NCBI RefSeq assembly: GCF_000026545.1
Contig: NC_011601.1
Length of the DNA stretch: 64,000 nucleotides
Origin: Escherichia coli O127:H6 str. E2348/69
Lineage (GTDB): Bacteria > Pseudomonadota > Gammaproteobacteria > Enterobacterales > Enterobacteriaceae
Direction: 5' to 3' (one strand)
The position numbers were made by a program, and so were the translations under genes. The number at the start of each line of letters is the position of its first letter. Position 1 is the first letter of the stretch. Positions 1 through 21,867 of this stretch are shown here, piece after piece. The notes below the pieces were generated by a model. That model did no database searches. It was not told the DNA's origin and saw only the letters and a program-made list of their open reading frames with translations.

Positions 1-2079
1 CGCTTTATCCAGCGAACGGAACAGATCTTTATAATCGATAATATAGCCATACTCTTTATCCTCACCGTCCAGCCGGTTCACCCGACAAATCGCCTGAAAC
101 AGCGTATGGTCGGTCATGGTTTTATCAATGTAGAGATAGGTGGCGGACGGCGCGTCAAAGCCAGTCAGCAGCTTATCCACCACGATAAGCAGGCGCATTT
201 GCCCCGGCTCTTCAATAAAACGCTGTTTCACTTCCCGCTCGAACTCGGTAATGCGTGCGGCGGCCTTCTCTTCACTTTGTTCAAAATAGTCAGCCAACAT
301 TTTACGATAGGTGGCGTGTTTAGAGAGTTTCTCCGTTAACCCTTCGCCTGTTTCTTCGCCTTTGATGCTGGCGGCATCGGGGCGATAGCTGGTCACAATC
401 GCTACTTTTCCTGCCAGCTCGGTCTGGCTGAACATCTCGTAAACCTTGCAGGCTTGATAGATACTGCTGCATACCAGCATGGCGTTGCCGCGCCCGTCCA
501 TCAGGCGTGGACGGGTATCCATATCCAACAAAATGTCGTTAACGATCTGCTCCAGCCGCGACTTGCTGGAGAGCAGCTTCTGCATTGATCCCCACTTTTG
601 CTTAAGCTGGGTCCTAGCTAAATTCGACAAGCCGCGAGTCTTGGCTTCAAACCAGTCATCGACCTTTTTCTCTGATGTCAGATACTGGTCAATATCGCGC
701 GCCTCATAGCGCAGATCCAGCACCACACCGTCGGCCACCGCTTCATCAAATTTATAGGTATGGATATAAGGGCCGAACACCTCAACCGACTTCTTCTTAT
801 CTTTCTTCATCAGCGGTGTGCCGGTAAAACCGATAAACAGGGCATCCGGCAGAATGGCAGTCATGGCGTTATGCAGCTTGCCGGATTGTGTGCGGTGGCA
901 CTCATCCACAAAAACAAACAGATCGCCTTTGGCGCAGAATGTTTTCGTCAGGGACTGCTGTAATTCGGTGATAAAGGCGTCGGTAGCCGCATTGTCTTCA
1001 GCTTCGCTGCGACGACCAAATTTATGCACCAGCGAGCAAATAAGCCACGGGTTAGGATGATTGAGCGTTGCGATAAGATCGTTGCCGCTGGAGGTGCGAT
1101 AAATATCTTCATTCACGCCCATAAACACGCTTTCGATCTGTTCATCCAGTTCGGTGCGGTCAGTCACAATCAACACGCGGGAGTTTGGCACATTTTCACG
1201 GATCCACTTCGCCAGCCAGACCATCGTCAGGCTTTTACCCGATCCCTGTGTGTGCCAGATAATACCGCCTTCACGACGGGCAATATGTTGTTTAGCCGCC
1301 TCGACGCCGAAGAACTGATTATGGCGGCAGAGTTTTTTCACCCCGACATCAAAGGCAATGTAATTATGGACGATATCCAACAGCCTGGATTTGCTACACA
1401 GACGACTTAAATGAAAGTCGAGTTTATGTGTATAGTCGCCAGGATTATCTTCTTTCCACTCCAGATAGTATTTTTCCGGGGTTTCGATGGTGCCGTAGCG
1501 CAGGCCCTGCGTATCGTTGCCTGCCATCACTAACTGCATAGTGGTGAAGAAATCGCGGATAAAGGTTTTCTTTTGATTATCGAGATTCTGCCGGATGCCT
1601 TCGCTGACGTGTACTGACGAACGCTTAAGTTCAATCACGCCCAGCGCAATGCCGTTAACGTACAGCACCAGATCCGGGCGCTTGCAGTACTCGCCTTTGA
1701 CCGTCACCTCATCAGCGATGGCGAAATCATTGGCTTGTGGGTTGGCCCAGTCAATCAGCCACACGGTTTGGTTCTGCTCGCCTGCGCCTTCTTTGTCTTT
1801 CACGCCGTAACGCAGCAGGCGATAGACCTCTTTATTGGCGTAATAGAGTTTTTTGCCTTCGCCCAGAGCGGCGGCGGAATCCAGTTGCCGCAACGCCCGG
1901 GTGATCAACGTATCATTAACGCCGCGCCGTTTTAGCCACGCGCTCAGTATATTAGTGTCGATGTTGCTGTTCCCGGTGTACCCGGTGCGGTGACTCAGAT
2001 GGCGGTAACCTAAATCTTCAACAAAAAACTGAATCAGACGCTGCTGTGTGGCGCGTTCGCGCTGGCCCACGGTACTCAA
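1..2079 (-). CDS. hsdR: Type I restriction enzyme R subunit (HsdR), partial; C-terminus runs off the left window edge
   Basis: Reverse-complement translation from ~2079 gives a continuous frame with helicase motifs (WHTQGSGKSLTMVWLA Walker A, FVFVDECHRTQ DEAH-like, GFTGTPL). AAGGAG lies 6 nt upstream of a TTG at 2079; alternative GTG at 2070. Not in ORF track because incomplete. Confidence 0.88.
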   Translation of the reverse strand, partial: MSTVGQRERATQQRLIQFFVEDLGYRHLSHRTGYTGNSNIDTNILSAWLKRRGVNDTLITRALRQLDSAAALGEGKKLYYANKEVYRLLRYGVKDKEGAGEQNQTVWLIDWANPQANDFAIADEVTVKGEYCKRPDLVLYVNGIALGVIELKRSSVHVSEGIRQNLDNQKKTFIRDFFTTMQLVMAGNDTQGLRYGTIETPEKYYLEWKEDNPGDYTHKLDFHLSRLCSKSRLLDIVHNYIAFDVGVKKLCRHNQFFGVEAAKQHIARREGGIIWHTQGSGKSLTMVWLAKWIRENVPNSRVLIVTDRTELDEQIESVFMGVNEDIYRTSSGNDLIATLNHPNPWLICSLVHKFGRRSEAEDNAATDAFITELQQSLTKTFCAKGDLFVFVDECHRTQSGKLHNAMTAILPDALFIGFTGTPLMKKDKKKSVEVFGPYIHTYKFDEAVADGVVLDLRYEARDIDQYLTSEKKVDDWFEAKTRGLSNLARTQLKQKWGSMQKLLSSKSRLEQIVNDILLDMDTRPRLMDGRGNAMLVCSSIYQACKVYEMFSQTELAGKVAIVTSYRPDAASIKGEETGEGLTEKLSKHATYRKMLADYFEQSEEKAAARITEFEREVKQRFIEEPGQMRLLIVVDKLLTGFDAPSATYLYIDKTMTDHTLFQAICRVNRLDGEDKEYGYIIDYKDLFRSLDKA

Positions 2080-2097
2080 AAGGCGCTCCTTAAACCC

Positions 2098-3177
2098 TCA
2101 GCAATGGAACTCCATTACGCGGTTAATGGCAAATTGCAGATTATTATTATCAAACAGCCTCAACTTACGGCTGGCCCAGCGTTCGCCCGCAGGCCACTGG
2201 TGCAGCCCTTCCTTAACGGAGTCCAGCGTTGGTTGACATTCGCCACGGCTCAGCAACCAGTCTACGGTTGCCAGCAACTCCAGACCAAACGGCGATTCAA
2301 AGCCGTCAATTAACTGGCTGACCTGCTCCAGCGCAGGTAGCCACTCTCTGGCTTCGTTGTTCAGATACGCATTAACGTGTTCTTTTTTCTGATCGTTAAA
2401 CCAGATCACATCCAGCGGTTGGCTGTCCGGGATGCGTTTCTCGGCTTTAAGATAGGTGCCGTCCAGCGCATTAAGCAGATGGTTCAGATTGGGCGCATAG
2501 GGGCCATAATAGTGAGCTTCAAACCGCAGTTTGAGGATATCGTCCTGTTGATGCTGCTCAATGGCGCGTTGTAACAGCCAGGCCAGTTTCTGGATTTCCA
2601 GTAGGCTGCACTCCATCCCCAATACCCAGTAGCGACGCACCAGTTCAGCGATGGCGGCTCTGGCGGGAGTGAGCTTTTTTACGCCAGTGCTTTTGGCAAC
2701 GTTCTGGTATTTTTCAGTCGGTTGGTAAATCAGGATATCAACGTCCTGAAGGTCGCCAAGGGCAGATTCAATCTGCGCCCGAACGTCCGGCCAGTTCAAA
2801 CCACCGTTGCCTGCGCCCAGTGGTGGAATGGCGATGGACTGCACGTTCTCTTCAATCAAAAAGCGGCGTAAGTCCTGCAAGCCATCTTCAATCCACTCCA
2901 TGCGGGAATCAGCGCGCCAGTGCTGTTTGGTCGGAAAATTAACAATCCAGCGCGGTCCCATCAGTTCCCCGGTTTCGGTAATGAACATTTTGCCGGTGAT
3001 CACCTGCTTTTGTTTGCAGGCGAGGGCATAGACTTTCATATTTTCGGGGAAGCGCTCTTTAAACATCAACGCGATGCCTTTCCCCATGACACCGACGGTA
3101 TTAACCGTATTCACCAGAGCTTCCACCGGTGCGTCCAGTAAATTGCCTTGTGTATATGTGATCATGAGAAGTACCAT
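2098..3177 (-). CDS. darG: DarG antitoxin (N-terminal macrodomain, ADP-ribosyl-DNA glycohydrolase)
   Basis: 359-aa ORF; macrodomain signature near N-terminus ([26 protein letters not shown]). Alternative ATG at 3165 gives a 4-nt ATGA overlap with the darT stop. Confidence 0.85.
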
Positions 3178-3818
3178 CCAGACCGTGTGTGAACGGACAT
3201 TGTTAGATTACGCTGAAACAGCCATTGTTCTAATTGTAACCTGACCTCTTCGCTGTAACAAATTATCCCATCCAGCAGAGAGATCGGGCAGTGTTGCCAG
3301 ATTAGCGCCTCTGCCTGATAGCGTTCAAATTTAGCCGGATCGTCTGGATCGCGGCGAAAGTCCCGTGCCTGCAAAATGGGCCAGTCGATCTGGTCCAGAC
3401 TATTCAGACTGGTGTAGTAGTTGGTCCAGTTATAGTAAGCATGGCTGTCGGTAAACACGAAGGGCACGTCGTGTGCTGCCACGTTCCGCAAGTTGCTGAC
3501 CAGAATAACGATCTCCTCATTGGGGCGTCGCTTAATGCCGCCGCGCCCGCTGTGGATGTTCATCAGCATTGGCGAGAAGGGGGTAAAATAAAACGGCACA
3601 TAGTCATGCAGTGTCCCGCCCGTTCCGACAGGTACCGGATGCCCGGCACGCTTGCCGATCAGCTCCGGGTTGCCGATATTGATCCAGTTTTCCGCCTGCA
3701 CCAGACTGTTGCCGCAGTGCAGCCCGTTATCCAGAATCCACGGGATATTGTCCCGATGGACGATACGCCAGATCAGGGCTTTTTGCGGGTTGAGGCTGGC
3801 GCTGTAGTCATAGGCCAT
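3162..3818 (-). CDS. darT: DarT toxin (DUF4433 ssDNA thymidine ADP-ribosyltransferase)
   Basis: 218-aa ORF immediately upstream of and overlapping the macrodomain gene; size and sequence as recalled for enteropathogenic E. coli DarT; ATG at 3816-3818. Confidence 0.82.
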
Positions 3819-3829
3819 AGGTTTCCCTT

Positions 3830-5191
3830 CTATATTAAGCGGGTTTTCCCGGTTAACAACTCCTGCATCATCCCCTGTTTAAGCTGACGGGTTTTGTCCA
3901 GACGCTGTTGCAGGGTCTGAATTTCCTTGTCCATATCGGAGAGGATGGTGGCGATGGCGGTTTGTTCTTCTTTTGGCGGAAATGCAAGATGTAATTTCCT
4001 GATAATAGTAAGATTCAACCCACCACGCCCCCCATCACCAGTAGATAAACTTCTCAGTTCCTCATAACGACTGTCGAGGTTATAGAACAGGAATTCTGTG
4101 GAATGATGTTTGCTGGGGAAAATCGCAGCAATAGACTGATTAGTACATAATTCAATGCGATTAATTGCTACAGTCCCTCGAGTCTTTCCTTGTCCTGCCA
4201 ATCCGACTAATACAGAATTTTTAGGCACATACTTTGTACTGGAGTTAACAAGCCCTTCGTCGGTTATATAATCGGCTACAGCATACACCTGTTTTAGGTG
4301 TAATTCGCCGGAACTCATCCAAGGATGAGTTCCTCCCCAATATGCTGAAATTTTAGTACTCGGAGTTCCACCAGCACAGCAGTCAGTAAATTGTCCAATG
4401 CTTGTGACTACCCAATCTTCAGGAATCGCCCCCAACTCGCTCTTTTTATATCCCTTAGCAGAGCCATCTTTGCGCAACGCAAACTGTGGCAAACGGGTTT
4501 TACCAGTCAGTAGTTGCTGCATTGTGGCAGTTTTGATGGACTGTTTTTTTGAGAGTAATTTTTCTAGGGATAGAATCAAGCTATCAACATTGGTTAATAC
4601 ATTAGCAATAGCCTTTTGCTCTACGATATTTTTCGGTATAGATATGCATAACTTCTCTAAAACTGAACGTTTAATCCCTTGGGCCGTTGAACCAGTCGCG
4701 CTTTCAGAAATATATGATTGAAAACGCTCTGATAATAAGATTTGGAGTATTAGTGATGGAGAAAAATTCTCTCTATCTATTTGTAAAAGAATTGTTCTCT
4801 GGCTAAGAATATATTTTTTGTTATCAGGAATAGATGCTGCATTCCCCAGAGGGGCTTCCATTGTGAAAGCTATGTCCCCTTTTTGGGGATGACCGGATGT
4901 CATCCAGCGCTTATATAGTTCTTCGGAACCAAAGTAACATTCAGTAGATAAATCTATATATCCTTTTTTAACATTAGCAGCAGAAAGGGCAACGATATCC
5001 CCATCCCCCCAATCCATTCCAAGTTTTTTGGGAGTTCTGCCGCGATAATCAATTATGTTGGTTGTCAGGTTTAATATCGTGGATACAACCCAATCCTCAG
5101 GAATCATCTCCATCTCAGTCAGCTTATACCCCGCAGGCACACCTTTCCCCACCGTACCCGACCGTTGCTCATTCAGCATTAAATCCACCAT
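3830..5191 (-). CDS. hsdS: Type I R-M specificity subunit (HsdS), two target-recognition domains
   Basis: ~453-aa ORF with the conserved LTGKTRL repeat after each TRD; ATG at 5189-5191 overlaps the hsdM stop by 1 nt (track start 5197 is an alternative GTG). Confidence 0.88.
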   Translation of the reverse strand: MVDLMLNEQRSGTVGKGVPAGYKLTEMEMIPEDWVVSTILNLTTNIIDYRGRTPKKLGMDWGDGDIVALSAANVKKGYIDLSTECYFGSEELYKRWMTSGHPQKGDIAFTMEAPLGNAASIPDNKKYILSQRTILLQIDRENFSPSLILQILLSERFQSYISESATGSTAQGIKRSVLEKLCISIPKNIVEQKAIANVLTNVDSLILSLEKLLSKKQSIKTATMQQLLTGKTRLPQFALRKDGSAKGYKKSELGAIPEDWVVTSIGQFTDCCAGGTPSTKISAYWGGTHPWMSSGELHLKQVYAVADYITDEGLVNSSTKYVPKNSVLVGLAGQGKTRGTVAINRIELCTNQSIAAIFPSKHHSTEFLFYNLDSRYEELRSLSTGDGGRGGLNLTIIRKLHLAFPPKEEQTAIATILSDMDKEIQTLQQRLDKTRQLKQGMMQELLTGKTRLI

Positions 5192-7629
5192 CACCACTCC
5201 AGCCCCATCGCCCGCAAATGCCCGGCCACTTTCTCGCTCAACGCCTCAACGGCGGCTGCAAGTGCTGGCAACGGTTCAGCATAACGCTCTTCCAGCTCCT
5301 TTACGCGCGACGCCAGTTGCTGGGTAATACGCTCTATCTCCGCTTTGATCCCTGCCTGCAATGTTGCCAGCCACTTATCCTGCACTACCAGCGTTTTAAT
5401 CGCTGCTTCATCCAGCGTGGGATAATGTTTAAATACCGCTCGATCCAACGCTTTCTGTGCGGCTTTTAGCGCTTTTTTCGCACTGGCCTCGGCCTTAATC
5501 AGCGCCAGACAGCGGTTCAGCACTGCCAGCTCATCCGGGTCGGCAGGGGTTTTCTTCAACTGTGCCAGACGGGCATTCACCAGCTTTTGCGTCACCTTAT
5601 CTTTATCGTTTTTCGCCTCAGCCAGCAGATCCTCTTCCCCTGCCTGCTCCTCGATGAATTCCACTAGCTGACGACTGGCTTCTTCACTACGCTCCTGCGC
5701 GCGGTTCAGCGCATCCAGCAGTTCCGGGAAACAGCGAATTTCCACCAGCGAACGGGGCAGCACATCGGCCTTGTAGCGCCGTTTGGTAAACTCGAAATCG
5801 TGCGTTTCTTTCCAGATGTTTTTGCCATCTTTGCCTTTCACCGGCTGAAGCTCGCGGATTTGCGCGGCGGCTTGCCAGCCATCCTGCATAATCACATACA
5901 CATCGTCCTGCATGACATCAGCCCAGTAATCCATCAGGATCTGGTACACGCTGTATTTGTTCAGCAACTCACTGTTGGCGTACTGCGCCAATAGCATTTC
6001 GCTGATATCGTGGATTAGCGCTTTGGGTTTATCTCCTTTGCGGATCTCTTCCAGACCTGCCTCTTTTACCCACGACTTAAACGGTAGCAGGCTGCGGGTG
6101 GCAAAATCCTTAAACTCCTGATGAGCCAGAATGGTCGGTTTCACCTGCTGAGCGTCCACTTGCGCCCGGCAGTAACCGGGGTGGTCGTCAGCAAACAGCA
6201 CATTACGCAGGGCAGGGAATACCCGCCAATAATCCTTCAAAGCATCTACATCGCGCACTGGAATACCGCCTTGTAAGTGCGCGGTCAGATCGTGCAAATC
6301 TTCCGGCTCTCCACTCTCGATATAACGAGGAATATTCAGGTTGTAATCATTCCCGGCGATCTCGCTGGAGGGCACCATCCGGCTGTAGCCTGGCACCGTT
6401 CGCTGATGGTTGAACACGTCCACAATACGGTGAATATCTTGGCTACGCAGGCGGTTCTTGTTGCCATCTTTGATAAAGCCCCGACTGGCGTCGATCATAA
6501 AAATGCCTTTGCGGCTGTGGGCGTGCTCTTTATCAATCACAATGATGCACGCCGGGATGCCGGTGCCGTAAAACAGGTTGGCTGGCAAACCAATAACGCC
6601 TTTGATATAGCCCTGCTTGATTAGGTTTTCACGGATATTCGCTTCGGCGTTACCGCGAAACAGTACGCCGTGGGGCAGGATTACCGCGCCTTTGCCGGTA
6701 CTTTTCAGGCTTTTAATGATATGCAACAAAAAAGCATAATCGCCGTTTTTTTCCGGCGGAATACCCCAGCCGAAGCGTTCAAACGGATCTTTTTTTGGCG
6801 TCAGCCCGTTGGTCCAGTTTTTATTGGAAAAAGGCGGGTTCGCCACGGCAAAATCGAAGGCTTTCAGTTTGCCGTTCGCCTCTTTCCACTGCGGATCGCT
6901 CAGCGTATTGCCCTGCCAGATTTTCGCGGTGGCATTGTTATGCAGAATCATGTTCATCCGCGCCAGCGCACTGGTAGCGTTATCCATCTCTTGGCCGAAA
7001 ATCGACAGTCCGCGCCGGGCTTCATCATTCACTTTCAACAGCAGCGAACCAGAGCCACAGGTTGGGTCATAAACCGTTGCATCTCGCGGCGTATCGGGAG
7101 TAATACCAATCACCTTCGCCAGAATACGTGACACCTCCGCCGGAGTGTAAAACTGTCCTTTACTCTTGCCGGATTCGGTTGCGAAGTGACGCATCAGATA
7201 TTCATAGGCATCGCCCAGCAGATCGTCGCCTTCGACCCGGTTGCTGGAGAGATCTAACCCTTCAAAGATACCGACAAGCTTGCTCAGGCGGTCAATCATT
7301 TCCTTGCCTTTGCCGAGTTTATCTTCGTCGTTAAAGTCGGCTTCGTCGATGACGCCCTTCAGGCCGTTCTCTTCCGCCAGCTTGTGGATGATTTTGTTGA
7401 TTTTATCGCCGATCTCTTTGTCATTTTTCAGCGCAACCATATCGTCAAAGCTGGCTCCTTTGGGTATCACGATCATCCCGTAAGGATCGCCTTTATACTT
7501 ATCGGAAACGTACTTCATAAACAGCAGGGTCAGTACATAGTCTTTGTACTGGCTGGCGTCCATCCCGCCACGCAGTTCGTCGCAGCTTGCCCACAGGGAA
7601 GAATAGAGTTCGGTTTTTTTGATAGCCAT
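5191..7629 (-). CDS. hsdM: Type I R-M N6-adenine DNA methyltransferase (HsdM), unusually long (812 aa) with a C-terminal coiled-coil extension
   Basis: HsdM-type N-terminus (ELYSSLWASCDELRGGMDASQYKDYVLTLLFMKYVSDKY), SAM-binding FYTP and catalytic NPPF motifs; ~280 aa alanine/lysine/glutamate-rich helical tail. Confidence 0.88.
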   Translation of the reverse strand: MAIKKTELYSSLWASCDELRGGMDASQYKDYVLTLLFMKYVSDKYKGDPYGMIVIPKGASFDDMVALKNDKEIGDKINKIIHKLAEENGLKGVIDEADFNDEDKLGKGKEMIDRLSKLVGIFEGLDLSSNRVEGDDLLGDAYEYLMRHFATESGKSKGQFYTPAEVSRILAKVIGITPDTPRDATVYDPTCGSGSLLLKVNDEARRGLSIFGQEMDNATSALARMNMILHNNATAKIWQGNTLSDPQWKEANGKLKAFDFAVANPPFSNKNWTNGLTPKKDPFERFGWGIPPEKNGDYAFLLHIIKSLKSTGKGAVILPHGVLFRGNAEANIRENLIKQGYIKGVIGLPANLFYGTGIPACIIVIDKEHAHSRKGIFMIDASRGFIKDGNKNRLRSQDIHRIVDVFNHQRTVPGYSRMVPSSEIAGNDYNLNIPRYIESGEPEDLHDLTAHLQGGIPVRDVDALKDYWRVFPALRNVLFADDHPGYCRAQVDAQQVKPTILAHQEFKDFATRSLLPFKSWVKEAGLEEIRKGDKPKALIHDISEMLLAQYANSELLNKYSVYQILMDYWADVMQDDVYVIMQDGWQAAAQIRELQPVKGKDGKNIWKETHDFEFTKRRYKADVLPRSLVEIRCFPELLDALNRAQERSEEASRQLVEFIEEQAGEEDLLAEAKNDKDKVTQKLVNARLAQLKKTPADPDELAVLNRCLALIKAEASAKKALKAAQKALDRAVFKHYPTLDEAAIKTLVVQDKWLATLQAGIKAEIERITQQLASRVKELEERYAEPLPALAAAVEALSEKVAGHLRAMGLEW

Positions 7630-7668
7630 TAAATATCTCGTTTTGCGCGATAATGTGCCGTAAGTCGG

Positions 7669-7914
7669 TTACAGCAGATCGGTATTCAGACCGGCGGCCT
7701 TTAACCGACGGGTTAAGTTACGCATTTTGCTGAATTCGGTACCGAGGCTCTGGCTCAGACCAGTGCCTTCGCAAAAGGCTTTTGCCGTAATGTGTTCCAG
7801 TTTGTCGGCATATTTAATCATTTGCAGGTGCAGCTCGACGGTGTACTGGTTACGAGGCGCACTGGAAAGTGCCTGCCGGATATGGCGATAAATCTCGTCT
7901 TCATCCATATTCAT
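7669..7914 (-). CDS. Small hypothetical protein (~81 aa) directly upstream of hsdM; possible regulator
   Basis: ORF co-oriented with hsdM and ending 40 bp before its ATG; likely start at internal ATG 7912-7914 (MNMDEDEIYRH...). The track N-terminal extension begins at a TTG and runs through the tandem repeat. Confidence 0.4.
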   Translation of the reverse strand: MNMDEDEIYRHIRQALSSAPRNQYTVELHLQMIKYADKLEHITAKAFCEGTGLSQSLGTEFSKMRNLTRRLKAAGLNTDLL

Positions 7915-7940
7915 GGTAACCACTGGTATAATGGATAAGT

Positions 7941-7967
7941 TAGCTAAATTAGCTAAATTAGCTAAAT
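7941..7967. repeat. Three tandem copies of a 9-bp unit containing the 8-bp palindrome TTAGCTAA
   Basis: TTAGCTAAA TTAGCTAAA TTAGCTAAA read directly; lies ~27 bp upstream of the small ORF start on the minus strand. Confidence 0.85.
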
Positions 7968-9059
7968 GTGGTATCAGGTTCAAGAACTACAGTGGGAGTC
8001 GGATTTGACTGCGCGATTTATGCACGTAAATGCCTTGTGGCGGATTAATGGCTGCAGTATCTTCTCCTTCCGCGCCTGCAAAATCAGGCGTCAGAATTAG
8101 CCTCCTGAAAACCGTTACAGGAGACTTCTCTATAGACTACAATCCTTGTCCCTGACTGCGATTTACTCGATCTATTGTTCGTTCCCTTATAATGCCACTA
8201 TAGATTTTACCGCCTTGGTCGACAACTGCGCCCGCTTTGCCGAATCCCTGATAGAAACCTAGGATCTTGCGCTGTAGCTTACCCTCTGCGGGCGATCTTG
8301 TACTGCTGCAACTCACGCAACACGACCTCATCCCGCCGCATCTTAACGAAAGCCTGCTCAGTGATACTCTCCCCACCATGCCAGAGCAGGTTATTTCTGA
8401 ACCTGATTCTTGTGCGAATATTGCCTCGTGCGGGCTGTGCATCATCGCCGCTCTTTGATAAGAGGCGTCAAAGGTAAGGGGCGTAGCGTTATTAGTTTGG
8501 GCTATACACTTGCGCTACAACTCTTCAAATAGCTATATATCAACAATATTTAGCCATAAACCGTCTACTTCCGTCTCAATTATACTCAAATTAAGGCATG
8601 CGGCATCTTTGTGACACATTTGTTTTTTTTATACAGGTTAGAGTTGACCTGCTCTCCGTTGATTAACTCACATTGTTGTTAACCACGTCTACTTTTAGCA
8701 CGACACTGATGCGTTAACTGAGCGAATGGTCTGCTTTGAGCGAGGAACGGACGTTCGCTTTCGGGTAACCTAACCCATATGCCAGAGGATCTCTAAGAGA
8801 TAATGGGTCGTTTAAGCGTGGCACTTACAGTATCAACGCCTCCGCACCCGACAACGTCTTGACTGCTGCAGATTCACTGAATAGACTGGTGACCTTTATC
8901 TTCATTTTGCGTGCAGCAAAATAAAGTTTTTGACTTACGAAAATCGTCGATTCGACTTAATTATACTAAGGGTTTTATGCTGACTTTTCATTGTGGGATA
9001 CACTAAATTAGTGAGATGAGAATTTATCTAACTGTCATTAACATAAGTAGGATTTAAAA

Positions 9060-9428
9060 ATGGCTAATAGCGAAATTGTTCCGTTTTCTGAAATTGTTAC
9101 AAGCAAAATAGACCTCAATCAAGCTGTAGCTCAAGGTCAAGAGATGACTGATACTCTTAAAAAAATGGGTATCAAAGAAGCGACATTTGATAGTGGAGCT
9201 TACTATAAACATGATCACGAATCGCAGACCACTACTCTTGCAGCTGATGGAATCTTGATGCGGCAGAGCCTCCACATTACAACAGTTATTTTCCGTAACG
9301 AAGGAAGTACTGAACAACAAGCTTTAGAGGAGCTTAATGCTGGTTCTCTGACACAAAAAACCTTAGGTGCATTCTCTGGAGTCTCTCAACAGAGAGCGTC
9401 TGAGCTACTCCAAATTGAAAAAGAATAA
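9060..9428 (+). CDS. Hypothetical protein (122 aa) with a C-terminal helix-turn-helix-like segment
   Basis: ORF in a low-GC block; AGGA ribosome-binding site upstream; C-terminal TQKTLGAFSGVSQQRASELLQIE resembles XRE-type HTH. Confidence 0.5.
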   Translation: MANSEIVPFSEIVTSKIDLNQAVAQGQEMTDTLKKMGIKEATFDSGAYYKHDHESQTTTLAADGILMRQSLHITTVIFRNEGSTEQQALEELNAGSLTQKTLGAFSGVSQQRASELLQIEKE

Positions 9429-9497
9429 TTATAAATAGGTTAGTAACGGCAGTTTTCTGCCGTTACTAAGAGTATTTACTCAAAATTAGGGAGTATT

Positions 9498-9884
9498 ATG
9501 GGATTCAATGACCAGCCCAAAAACCTGAAAAAATCCATTAACGATAAATATAACAGAAGGGTAAAGTCACTTTCTCGGCATCTCGAGGATTTTATTTATC
9601 ATGCAGAAATGAAACTGGACGAATCTATTTCTGGAAGGATTTATCGCAGAAGCGAGATTGAGTCAATTGTTGAGAAAGTAAAAGAATTGATGGCTATCCT
9701 TCCGGCTTCAGATGAACCTCCTTCAATTAATTTTGATATTCTTGAAATCATTGAGAATGCAACAGAAGAAACTCAGCGCATTTTATCAGAAGGACAAAAA
9801 TTCTTCGACAACCTCTCTCCTGAAGAATTGGCAGAAATGATATCAACATTCCAACAAAATAAAAAAGATAGTGAATCTGAGTGA
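9498..9884 (+). CDS. Hypothetical protein (128 aa), acidic and predicted helical
   Basis: ORF 70 bp downstream of and co-oriented with the previous ORF; GGGAG ribosome-binding site; no recognisable motif. Confidence 0.45.
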   Translation: MGFNDQPKNLKKSINDKYNRRVKSLSRHLEDFIYHAEMKLDESISGRIYRRSEIESIVEKVKELMAILPASDEPPSINFDILEIIENATEETQRILSEGQKFFDNLSPEELAEMISTFQQNKKDSESE

Positions 9885-19479: not shown

Positions 19480-21867
19480 ATGATGCACGAAAAGAACATC
19501 GCCCTGCTTTGTGATGAAGCCGACCGGCTTTTGCAACTGAATATCAATCTGCTCCGGCAAATGGTTGATGAGCCGGATGTGTTATCTGACAGTAAGAACG
19601 AAAACGGGCTGCTTTTTGATAAACGGAAAGCGCTGAAAAGAATTGAGGAGCTGGAGGGCGAACAAATCAAAACCGCCCGCAGGGAGATGGTGCTGGCTGT
19701 GGTCGGCACGATGAAGGCGGGCAAATCAACCACCATCAACGCCATTGTGGGGCAGGAAATTCTGCCCAACCGTAACCGCCCCATGACCTCGGTACCGACA
19801 TTGATCCGCCACGTTCCCGGAAAAACGGAACCGGTCCTCCATCTGGAACATATTCAGCCCGTCCGCAATTTATTAATCACACTGCAGGAAAAACTCGCCA
19901 CCCCGGCAGGGCAGCAAGTCGCACAGTCCCTGCAGCAAACCGGGGATACCCGCGAACTACTGGATATTCTGGCGGATGATGTCTGGCTTAAAAATGAATA
20001 CCACGGGGAAGACGAAATCTTTACCGGACTGGCATCGTTAAATGACCTGGTTCGTCTTGCTGCGGCAATGGGGACTGAATTTCCTTTTGACGAATACGCA
20101 GAAGTGCAGAAACTACCGGTGATCGACGTGGCGTTCAGCCACCTGGTGGGAATGGATGCATGTCAGGGAACACTCACACTGCTGGATACCCCCGGCCCTA
20201 ATGAAGCCGGACAACCACAGATGGAAATGATGATGCGGGATCAACTACAGAAAGCCTCTGCGGTGCTGGCGGTGATGGATTACACCCAGATGAACTCGAA
20301 AGCCGATGAGGAGGTTCGTAAAGAGCTTAATGCCATTGCTGACGTCTCAGCCGGTCGTCTGTTTGTGCTGGTCAATAAATTCGATGAAAAAGATCGCAAT
20401 GGTGATGGTGCGGATGCCGTACGCCAGAAGGTGCCAGCAATGCTGAACAGCGATGTGCTGCCCGCCTCCCGCGTTTATCCCGGCTCATCACGTCAGGCGT
20501 ACCTTGCTAACCGTGCGCTTCATGAGTTACGAAAAAACGGTGCGCTTCCGGTTGATGAAGCCTGGGTCGATGATTTTATCAGGGAAGCTTTCGGACCTAT
20601 GGTGGAAGAGGACGACTGGAAAGACAGCACTAAGGTAAATAAAAAGGCAGAAAAACTCTGGAATATATCTCTGATCGATCAACTGATAACGGAAGTCATA
20701 CAGAGCTCCCATTCCAGAGCGGCGGCACTGGCGGTTGACTCTGCCGCCGCAAAACTGATGCAGAATGCAGAAAATATCAGCGAATATCTGTCATTACGTC
20801 ATCAGGGGCTGCAGCAAAGCATTCAGTCACTACAGGCGCATATTACCAGCCTGCTGGCGGATATCCAGGAGATTGAGGAATGTCAGAATCAGGTGACCGG
20901 TGATGTCAGAATGGCCATGGAGGACATCAATACCAAAACCGGGGAATTACTGACGAAGGTCTGTGCCTCACTGGAGGAGGAGCTGAACGACTATTTCAGA
21001 AGCGGTAAACGCAAAGAACAGCAAATGCTGGAGGAAGAAAATTCAGCGCAGCCCCGGGAGAGAAACGCATTCGCTTTCTTTCACGATATTTTCGGAACCG
21101 GAAATCAGCATGACAGGATGCGGGACTTTGATCCGGACAGCCCCGAAATAAAATTCAGTGATCGCAGGGCAGCCCTTGAACTGATGACGCAAATCGAATC
21201 GACCGTGACCAGCCTGCACCGTGAGGCTGAAGCACAGTTCCGGCCTGAGCTGGAGAAAATCGTCAGCGGGATTGAAACAGGTTTTCGTGGCACGGCCCTG
21301 TACGCCACAGAAAACATTGCCGGTCGCATCAATGCCCGCCTGGAGGATGAGGGCTTTACCGTAAAAATCAGTTTTCCGGCAGTCAGCCAGTTACAGACCC
21401 GGCTCGCGGTAAAAATAAATCTGAGTGCGCTTATGGAGGAAAGAACGGAGACCGTCACCCGTCGCCGTCGGCAGAGTGGCGTATGGGGAACCGTTTGTCG
21501 ATGGTTTGGCACCAGTGACCTGGGCTGGGAAAACTATGACGAGGATGTGAGTCGCAGCGTGATCAATATCAACAAGGTCAGAGAGGAAGTTATGTCACTG
21601 ACCCGGGCATATTTCGGGGAGCTGCAGGCATCCATTGAGCAGGATATTAACCAGCCCGTCCGCCAGGAAATCGATGCCTTTTTCTGCGCATTCAGGGAGA
21701 AAGTTGAACAACTGCGTAACACGCTGATTCAGAGCTCTGAAGATCATAAACGCGATCAGCAGGCGCAGGAACGGCTTACCGGGCGACTTCAGGCATTAAA
21801 TGAAAGGGTTCCTGAGCTCATTACTGACAGTAAGGCGCTGAGGGAAGAGCTGGAGACAATGCTGTGA
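19480..21867 (+). CDS. Dynamin-like GTPase, CrfC/YjdA-like (795 aa)
   Basis: G1 GTMKAGKST (nt 19705-19731), G3 DTPGPNE, G4 NKFD; long helical C-terminal region; resembles recalled E. coli CrfC (YjdA) N-terminus. Confidence 0.85.
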   Translation: MMHEKNIALLCDEADRLLQLNINLLRQMVDEPDVLSDSKNENGLLFDKRKALKRIEELEGEQIKTARREMVLAVVGTMKAGKSTTINAIVGQEILPNRNRPMTSVPTLIRHVPGKTEPVLHLEHIQPVRNLLITLQEKLATPAGQQVAQSLQQTGDTRELLDILADDVWLKNEYHGEDEIFTGLASLNDLVRLAAAMGTEFPFDEYAEVQKLPVIDVAFSHLVGMDACQGTLTLLDTPGPNEAGQPQMEMMMRDQLQKASAVLAVMDYTQMNSKADEEVRKELNAIADVSAGRLFVLVNKFDEKDRNGDGADAVRQKVPAMLNSDVLPASRVYPGSSRQAYLANRALHELRKNGALPVDEAWVDDFIREAFGPMVEEDDWKDSTKVNKKAEKLWNISLIDQLITEVIQSSHSRAAALAVDSAAAKLMQNAENISEYLSLRHQGLQQSIQSLQAHITSLLADIQEIEECQNQVTGDVRMAMEDINTKTGELLTKVCASLEEELNDYFRSGKRKEQQMLEEENSAQPRERNAFAFFHDIFGTGNQHDRMRDFDPDSPEIKFSDRRAALELMTQIESTVTSLHREAEAQFRPELEKIVSGIETGFRGTALYATENIAGRINARLEDEGFTVKISFPAVSQLQTRLAVKINLSALMEERTETVTRRRRQSGVWGTVCRWFGTSDLGWENYDEDVSRSVININKVREEVMSLTRAYFGELQASIEQDINQPVRQEIDAFFCAFREKVEQLRNTLIQSSEDHKRDQQAQERLTGRLQALNERVPELITDSKALREELETML

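Follow-up and report, generated by a model that had tools for sequence, protein, structure and literature searches.

Upstream of the hsdM gene of Escherichia coli O127:H6 str. E2348/69, a small gene is preceded by a tandem array of short palindromes, and the locus raises the question of whether these palindromes are operator sites through which the small protein controls the whole restriction-modification (R-M) operon. Our analysis of the 64,000-nucleotide (64-kb) stretch of DNA around the locus, hereafter the window, which matches the chromosome of this enteropathogenic (EPEC) strain at 100% identity, leads to the answer that the small gene is rptR and that the three TTAGCTAAA units are, almost beyond doubt, the RptR operator array in the promoter of the RptR-RMS-DarTG-M48 island, an explanation that no finding of the analysis contradicts. 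Both the gene and its operator repeats are already known, since this very locus of E2348/69 was studied by Zhang et al. (Nucleic Acids Res 2025; PMC12255303), who named the protein RptR for "RMS-proximal transcriptional regulator". The dimer structure, repeat binding, repression, 6-bp core, two-site need and induction on infection were established by experiment in that work, while the identity of locus and protein, the mapped coordinates and the conservation across genera of the protein, the phased sites and the operon position come from the present analysis.

The repeat array and its position

Three exact TTAGCTAAA 9-mers stand on the plus strand in the context GGATAAG-TTAGCTAAA-TTAGCTAAA-TTAGCTAAA-TGTGG; an earlier note, made from the letters alone, had described the repeats rightly and placed them one base off, at 7941-7967 instead of 7940-7966. 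Each unit holds an exact TTAGCTAA octamer (7940-7947, 7949-7956 and 7958-7965), which can be seen directly in the sequence to be its own reverse complement, just as the note had said of the 8-bp core. Tandem Repeats Finder delimits the array as 7936-7967, with a period of 9, 3.6 copies and 95% matches. The array is not due to chance, because TTAGCTAA occurs four times in the 64-kb window where 0.64 occurrences are expected, three of the four being within the array, and the phased pair pattern TAKMTANNNTAKMTA occurs twice where 0.05 are expected, both times within the array. Counted from the ATG at 7908, the TAGCTA cores lie at -56, -47 and -38, and the array begins 31 bp upstream of this ATG and 25 bp upstream of the in-frame ATG at 7914, the latter distance having been given before as about 27 bp. 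The features of the locus are collected in Table 1.

Table 1. Coordinates of the operator array, the promoter and the genes of the rptR operon in the window
Feature	Position	Strand	Description	Basis
RptR operator array	7940..7966		three 9-bp direct repeats, TTAGCTAAA on the plus strand, TTTAGCTAA in gene orientation	sequence; PMC12255303
DR1	7966->7958		TAGCTA core 7959..7964	sequence; DR naming from PMC12255303
DR2	7957->7949		TAGCTA core 7950..7955	sequence; DR naming from PMC12255303
DR3	7948->7940		TAGCTA core 7941..7946, minimal RptR site	sequence; PMC12255303
Fourth position in 9-bp phase	7932..7937		one step downstream of DR3; TATCCA in gene orientation, not a permitted site	
-35 box	7978..7983	minus	TTGAAC, 17 bp from TAATTT	sequence; PMC12255303
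Functional -10 box	7955..7963	minus	AGCTAATTT, 5' box of PMC12255303, overlapping DR1 and DR2	
Alternative in-frame start	7909..7914	minus	ATG AAT, two codons upstream of ATG 7908	sequence
rptR	7669..7908	minus	79 aa + stop, first gene of the defence operon	RefSeq WP_000343040.1, PF24718, 9R2Z
hsdM	5191..7629	minus	type I methyltransferase subunit, 812 aa	TIGR00497, 280.8 bits (cut-off 242.75); annotation
hsdS	3830..5191	minus	specificity subunit	annotation; profile search
darT	3162..3818	minus	DNA ADP-ribosyltransferase toxin	NF048013, 262.6 bits (cut-off 150); annotation
darG	2098..3165	minus	DNA ADP-ribosylglycohydrolase antitoxin	NF048014, 451 bits (cut-off 250); annotation
hsdR	1..2079	minus	5' part, gene continuing past the window start	NZ_CP059840.2 annotation mapped to the window

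The small gene and its operon

It is certain that the product of the small gene belongs to the RptR/HTH_73 family, of which it is the type member. In fact, 79 of its 79 residues match chain A of the PDB entry 9R2Z (100% identity in a PDB sequence search), and the accessions and distances of PMC12255303 agree with the locus, which together identify the protein as RptR. The PDB entry is titled "Transcription factor", and its citation was found in PMC12255303 only. Against Pfam the protein is recognized as HTH_73 (PF24718) with an E-value of 1.1e-28 over model positions 2-70/71, and searches of NCBIfam and PADLOC gave no family match. The residues Glu25, Glu58, Ser60, Lys61, Leu69, Ala72 and Leu74 (79-aa numbering), listed in PMC12255303 for alpha-4 DNA recognition and dimerisation, are all present in the protein of the window.

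The start codon in E. coli is ambiguous between 7908 and 7914. The open reading frame ends with a stop codon at 7669-7671 on the minus strand and has two in-frame ATGs, of which the one at 7914 gives the 81-codon frame of the earlier note and the one at 7908 gives the 79-aa form used for both RefSeq WP_000343040.1 and the crystallised protein; the frame thus stands, with a shorter product in the annotation. Homologues from other genera align with the 79-aa form. The start region of other E. coli alleles consists of a duplicated hexamer, ATGAAT-ATGAAT, where the first ATG (equivalent to 7914) is invariant across seven aligned alleles and the second (equivalent to 7908) is ATA in ECONIH1, UK_Dog and FXCREC123, so that in this species the 81-aa start has to be taken seriously beside the annotated one.

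Downstream of rptR, hsdM starts at 7629 after a gap of 39 bp, which bears out the adjacency noted earlier and shortens by one base the distance given for it. The operon runs in the order rptR-hsdM-hsdS-darT-darG-hsdR, with hsdR as the sixth gene and, by annotation, an M48 peptidase gene after it outside the window; since darT and darG lie between hsdS and hsdR, the locus is a type I R-M system with an embedded DarTG module. All the accessions of Fig. 1 of PMC12255303 compared here, namely WP_000343040.1, WP_000985463.1, WP_000228010.1, WP_000312835.1, WP_000634203.1, WP_000108733.1 and WP_001122107.1, are those annotated at this locus, and the seven-gene RptR-RMS-DarTG-M48 island is reported there to guard E. 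coli against several phages.

The promoter and the action of RptR on it

The -10 box was placed by mapping the distances of PMC12255303 onto the window sequence, which they fit when counted from the ATG at 7908 (repeats at 58 to 31 bp, -10 boxes at 51 and 42, -35 box at 72). The hexamer TAATTT of the functional box reads 7960->7955 and sits at the junction of DR1 and DR2. Scrambling of this 5' -10 box abolishes reporter activity and it alone of the two is needed, while scrambling of the -35 box attenuates the reporter (PMC12255303). A consensus promoter scan missed the island promoter owing to the weak resemblance of TAATTT to TATAAT; the matches that it gave elsewhere (8225->8197 on the minus strand and 8114-8143 on the plus strand) are both at chance level.

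As for the protein, RptR is a homodimer of four-helix subunits according to a 1.3 A crystal structure and size-exclusion chromatography (PMC12255303). In gel shifts it binds a 60-bp probe with the three repeats and not a scrambled one, the binding being cooperative with a Hill coefficient of 3.4 and a KD of about 185 nM, and in GFP reporters it represses the native promoter about 10-fold (PMC12255303). Gel shifts, GFP reporters and point mutants in the same work also established that the repeats overlap the -10 box and that RptR bound to them represses the island promoter, that RptR needs no more than the 6-bp palindrome TAGCTA as its site, T and A being tolerated at the G and C positions, and that two intact repeats suffice for full repression. 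These promoter and repression assays used multicopy plasmids with arabinose-induced RptR in K-12 hosts, and not the EPEC chromosome (PMC12255303). The proposals made from the letters alone, that the phased palindromes are operators and the small protein autoregulates its R-M operon, have thus both been borne out by experiment at the E2348/69 locus.

Putting these observations together, the mechanism is most likely the following. Transcription proceeds on the minus strand from a sigma-70 promoter with the -35 box TTGAAC (7983->7978), a 17-bp spacer and the -10 box TAATTT, the start site itself being one that we infer. The 9-kDa four-helix homodimer of RptR would insert both of its alpha-4 helices into one major groove and so read the TAGCTA of each 9-bp unit, a single-groove geometry predicted from an AlphaFold 3 model and mutagenesis rather than a co-crystal (PMC12255303). 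Dimers on neighbouring units cooperate and occlude the -10 box together with the start region, two units being enough, so that rptR, hsdM, hsdS, darT, darG and hsdR are all repressed by RptR in a negative autoregulation. Phage infection would then lift the repression, hsdM mRNA having been found to rise more than 15-fold after infection (PMC12255303).

The reading of two adjacent units as one 17-bp palindrome, TTAGCTAA-A-TTAGCTAA, under a single conventional HTH dimer was dropped, because each 6-bp core is a dimer site by mutagenesis and gel shifts and because sites parted by a scrambled unit still work (PMC12255303).

For the presumed de-repression step, the M48 Zn-metallopeptidase encoded by the last gene of the rptR operon is an obvious but weakly supported candidate for the relieving factor. 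If it did remove RptR on infection, which we consider unlikely, RptR and M48 would pair as repressor and protease in the manner of CapH/CapP of CBASS. That the peptidase is an obligate partner of RptR is a reading weakened by the rptR-headed operons of Aeromonas and Methylomonas, where no M48 gene is found within 10 kb downstream.

Conservation in other genera

A database search yielded 685 relatives of RptR, nearly all of them 79 aa long with PF24718, and relatives with 73-90% identity are found in Enterobacterales, Vibrio, Shewanella, Aeromonas, Methylomonas, Nitrosomonas and an alphaproteobacterial MAG. In an alignment of 12 sequences that covers Enterobacterales, Vibrio, Shewanella, Aeromonas, Methylomonas and Nitrosomonas, the C-terminal recognition/dimerisation helix GTEFSKMRNLT.RLK.AGL is invariant, as are the seven residues named above. 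Moreover, the rptR homologue heads a defence-type operon in all five taxa examined. For example in V. cholerae, it is followed by hsdM (808 aa), hsdS, a pair of AAA_21 ATPase and SLFN_AlbA_2 genes, and hsdR; in Methylomonas and Nitrosomonas, by an hsdM remnant and then an ATPase/AlbA_2 pair as in V. cholerae; and in Aeromonas, by an SNF2/NOV_C helicase, AAA ATPases and a DUF1156 protein.

The operator sites are conserved along with the protein. When 160 bp upstream of each homologue were scanned, every one showed two to four TA[G/T][C/A]TA palindromes at a strict spacing of 9 bp, located 28-58 bp upstream of the start codon: TAGATA at -58, TAGCTA at -49 and -40 and TATCTA at -31 in V. cholerae; TAGCTA at -47, -38 and -29 in Methylomonas; TATATA at -50, TAGCTA at -41 and TATATA at -32 in Nitrosomonas; and TAGCTA at -46 and -37 in Aeromonas. 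Across these taxa the palindromes keep both their 9-bp spacing and their distance to the start codon while the flanking sequence is not conserved, in agreement with the survey of 80 promoters in PMC12255303.

Copy number among E. coli strains

The region is present in 248 of 5,426 complete E. coli genomes, and the three-unit array, by gapless matches, in only three of these 248 assemblies, all of which are E2348/69 or O127:H6. Sixty of the 248 alleles, evenly spaced down the ranking, were inspected individually, the remainder being inferred from identity bands; one of the sixty is E2348/69 itself, one is interrupted by an IS, and the remaining 58 each lack exactly 9 bp, so that they have two units. 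A synthetic one-unit query and a synthetic four-unit query found no gapless match in E. coli genomes, and their best matches were the two-unit and the three-unit allele, respectively. Given the three gapless matches, the 58 two-unit records out of 58 and the missing one- and four-unit matches, the three units represent a single-step expansion specific to one lineage, E. coli alleles normally have two, and the array cannot be called hypervariable. Copy number, whose variation between strains the earlier note had proposed to check, thus varies only between three and two.

The third repeat may be a recent slipped-strand expansion limited to the O127:H6 lineage, a proposal better grounded than that of the M48 peptidase acting on RptR. 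If it is true, the published three-site strain would carry an unusual allele, under tighter repression, of a promoter for which two sites are normal. As the units are identical, removal of any one of them keeps the -35 box, the 17-bp spacer and the -10 box. In a keyword search of the main text of PMC12255303, neither other E. coli strains nor slippage were mentioned.

One idea about the third TAGCTA unit was that it compensates for the loss of a fourth site. The position one 9-bp step downstream of DR3 is the permitted variant TATCTA in the two-copy strains CFSAN061761, ECONIH1 and UK_Dog, and it is TATCCA, as in E2348/69, in the two-copy strains 319, 88-3493 and O157:H7 FRIK804; the idea was dropped since these latter strains have the same TATCCA with two copies.

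As a separate observation, FXCREC123 carries an IS5 within the promoter-distal unit, with a CTAA target duplication, and this insertion parts the -35 box from the -10 box.

Alternative explanations

Several other explanations of the locus have to be weighed against that of RptR and its operators. That the array has no regulatory role and is a microsatellite or contingency repeat varying between strains is suggested by the difference in copy number (three units in E2348/69, two in CFSAN061761) and by the resemblance of the extra unit to a slipped-strand duplication, but the variation is minimal, with three units in just the O127:H6 assemblies, the uniform 9-bp difference of all other sampled full-length matches and the failure of both synthetic queries. 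Furthermore, phased palindromes are kept upstream of homologues in other bacterial orders, and scrambled repeats lose RptR binding and repression (PMC12255303). The cross-genus conservation and the published gel shifts and reporters refute this explanation, which is to be considered highly improbable; the common strain-variable microsatellite that the earlier note had named as a case against its own proposal is not what is found, copy number being nearly fixed at two. The repeats could also be coding, as there is a mechanical open reading frame at 7669-7983 which, from a TTG start at 7983, would give a 104-aa protein with the repeats translated into an N-terminal LAN-LAN-LAN extension (LANLANLAN). 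The probability of this is close to nil: homologues are 79 aa long and start at the aligned methionine, their upstream regions are out of frame and not conserved as protein, the TTG at 7983 belongs to the functional -35 box TTGAAC, and the 79-aa protein folds, dimerises and binds DNA (PMC12255303).

The remaining alternative comes from the controller (C) proteins of type II systems, which the note had taken as its analogy. C proteins such as C.AhdI, C.PvuII and C.Esp1396I are small homodimeric autoregulators encoded within the R-M operon, and through binding to repeated palindromic operators within their own promoter they control toxic restriction genes. Their HTH is of the Xre type, their C-box operators are long and are bound across two major grooves, they both activate and repress, and their genes as a rule stand ahead of that of the nuclease. 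RptR is like them in being a small dimeric autoregulator that acts on repeated palindromes and heads an R-M operon, and RptR is called "akin to" C proteins in PMC12255303, so that the small protein might itself be a true C protein, an activator/repressor switch with an Xre-type HTH that acts on C-boxes and times nuclease expression. This is very doubtful, however. In a Pfam search HTH_73 is the sole significant match of RptR, with no match to HTH_3 or Xre, whereas C proteins belong to the Xre-type HTH (Pfam HTH_3 and relatives), and a PDB sequence search found no relative of the protein besides RptR itself (9R2Z). The sites of RptR are 6-bp palindromes at every 9 bp, each TAGCTA probably read in a single groove as the AlphaFold model suggests, in contrast to the paired long palindromes of C proteins with two major grooves per dimer; repression alone has been shown for RptR, while C proteins activate and repress; and the gene that directly follows rptR is hsdM of a type I system, not the nuclease gene. 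Because the Xre-type HTH, the long C-box operators and the position before the nuclease gene are all absent here, the resemblance of RptR to C proteins is functional only and the two are not homologous; the analogy holds for function and fails for descent.

A wider likeness exists to CapH/CapP of CBASS and to BrxR/WYL regulators, in each of which a small repressor, as with RptR, stands at the head of a phage-defence operon and holds its expression down until infection occurs. BrxR of BREX-type islands has a WYL sensor domain, and CapH has a cognate protease, CapP, whereas RptR is a single 79-aa domain with no sensor or partner described. CapH/CapP is cited beside RptR as a defence-island repressor in PMC12255303.

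Implications

The preferred explanation thus remains that of rptR and its operator array. Since both the operator and the autoregulator had been predicted correctly from the raw sequence, the value of the present result is that of a positive control and not of a new discovery. The two-repeat norm, the IS5 in one operator and the ambiguous start codon are additions which should be useful when one generalises from E2348/69.

For a long time the regulation of type I restriction systems was believed to be purely post-translational. That controller proteins are not a standard part of such systems, as the note had remarked, was true until 2025, and RptR has since been shown to be widespread beside type I systems in Gammaproteobacteria (PMC12255303). 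What RptR represents is transcriptional control of type I restriction systems together with their embedded defence cargo, exerted by a 79-aa repressor that, on the AlphaFold model, would read a 6-bp palindrome within a single DNA groove in an unusual manner.

Variation of the operator among E. coli strains

The repeat array that RptR binds, overlapping the -10 box, shows minimal variation in copy number across the species. Our comparison of 248 E. coli genomes (60 inspected individually, the rest inferred from identity bands) revealed three units (window 7940-7966) only in three O127:H6 (E2348/69) assemblies, while two units fit every other full-length allele, and neither one-unit nor four-unit alleles were found among these genomes. 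Because three units are confined to the O127:H6 assemblies and two are seen elsewhere, the atypical allele is the one carried by the published model strain E2348/69. One further 9-bp step along from the repeats, a fourth position (window 7932-7937) is also polymorphic among E. coli strains: E2348/69, 88-3493 and O157-type strains have TATCCA there, and some strains with two units have TATCTA, a permitted variant of the RptR site.

In E. coli FXCREC123, an IS5 element lies within the promoter-distal TTAGCTAAA unit, flanked by a CTAA target-site duplication. The -35 box thereby ends up on one side of the insertion, and the -10 box with the two TAGCTA sites that remain on the other. The IS5 target motif is present within the repeat unit itself.

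Start region of rptR and integrity of the island

Variation extends to the start region of rptR (window 7903-7914), where other E. coli alleles have a tandem ATGAAT duplication. All E. coli alleles compared keep the first ATG (7914), but ECONIH1, UK_Dog and FXCREC123 have ATA in place of the second, at 7908, which is the start in the annotation. The true start codon of rptR in E. coli is therefore ambiguous. In strain 319 (L017) and O157:H7 FRIK804 (L019), the annotation gives rptR as a pseudogene truncated at the C-terminal end despite an intact two-unit operator, which suggests ongoing decay of the island in that lineage.

Downstream, HsdM (window 5191-7629) has 812 aa, and its best-scoring TIGR00497 stretch spans residues 71-444 only. 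The C-terminal ~370 residues gave no family match in the family profile search, and seem to contain many charged residues and much coiled coil. The V. cholerae HsdM orthologue adjoining rptR has 808 aa, and therefore this C-terminal extension is conserved.

On the other side, the flank upstream of the rptR promoter occupies window 8137-13867, where the IS3 and IS66-family elements mark the island edge. The CFSAN061761 flank is unlike that of the window, and genes for a GTPase and an Ag43 adhesin are reached there instead.

Features of the rptR locus in the window and of related loci in other genomes
Feature	Sequence	Coordinates	Strand
Hypothetical gene	window	9060-9428	+
Hypothetical gene	window	9498-9884	+
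IS3 element	window	10899-12070	
IS66-family tnpB fragment	window	about 12125-12223	
IS66-family transposase	window	12254-13867	
IS5 insertion (equivalent window ~7953-7966)	L003 (E. coli FXCREC123, NZ_CP196168.1)	3080-4290	
Island headed by RptR homologue	L012 (Aeromonas contig)	10001-20240	
AAA_21 ATPase / SLFN_AlbA_2 pair	L013 (Methylomonas)	10486-14267	
AAA_21 ATPase / SLFN_AlbA_2 pair	L014 (V. cholerae)	14052-17806	

Cargo and mobility of rptR-headed islands

In V. cholerae, hsdS and hsdR are separated by two genes, one for an AAA_21 ATPase of ~875 aa and one for a SLFN_AlbA_2/HATPase_c_4 protein of ~385 aa, in the exact place occupied by darTG in EPEC; the pair has been mentioned without an assigned function (PMC12255303). 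In Methylomonas and Nitrosomonas, rptR is followed by an hsdM remnant and then by the same pair. In Aeromonas, the RptR homologue has two TAGCTA sites and is the first gene product of a non-type I island. The other products are a 1180-aa SNF2/NOV_C helicase, two ATPases (one AAA, one AAA_21), a protein of 197 aa and a 965-aa DUF1156 protein, and a BrxR/WYL regulator gene lies upstream of the island.

RptR homologues are also encoded by 76 plasmid records in PLSDB, including those of Escherichia, Acinetobacter, Vibrio, Phytobacter and Yersinia ruckeri. Conjugative or mobilizable plasmids account for 47 of the 76, and therefore RptR travels with mobile elements.
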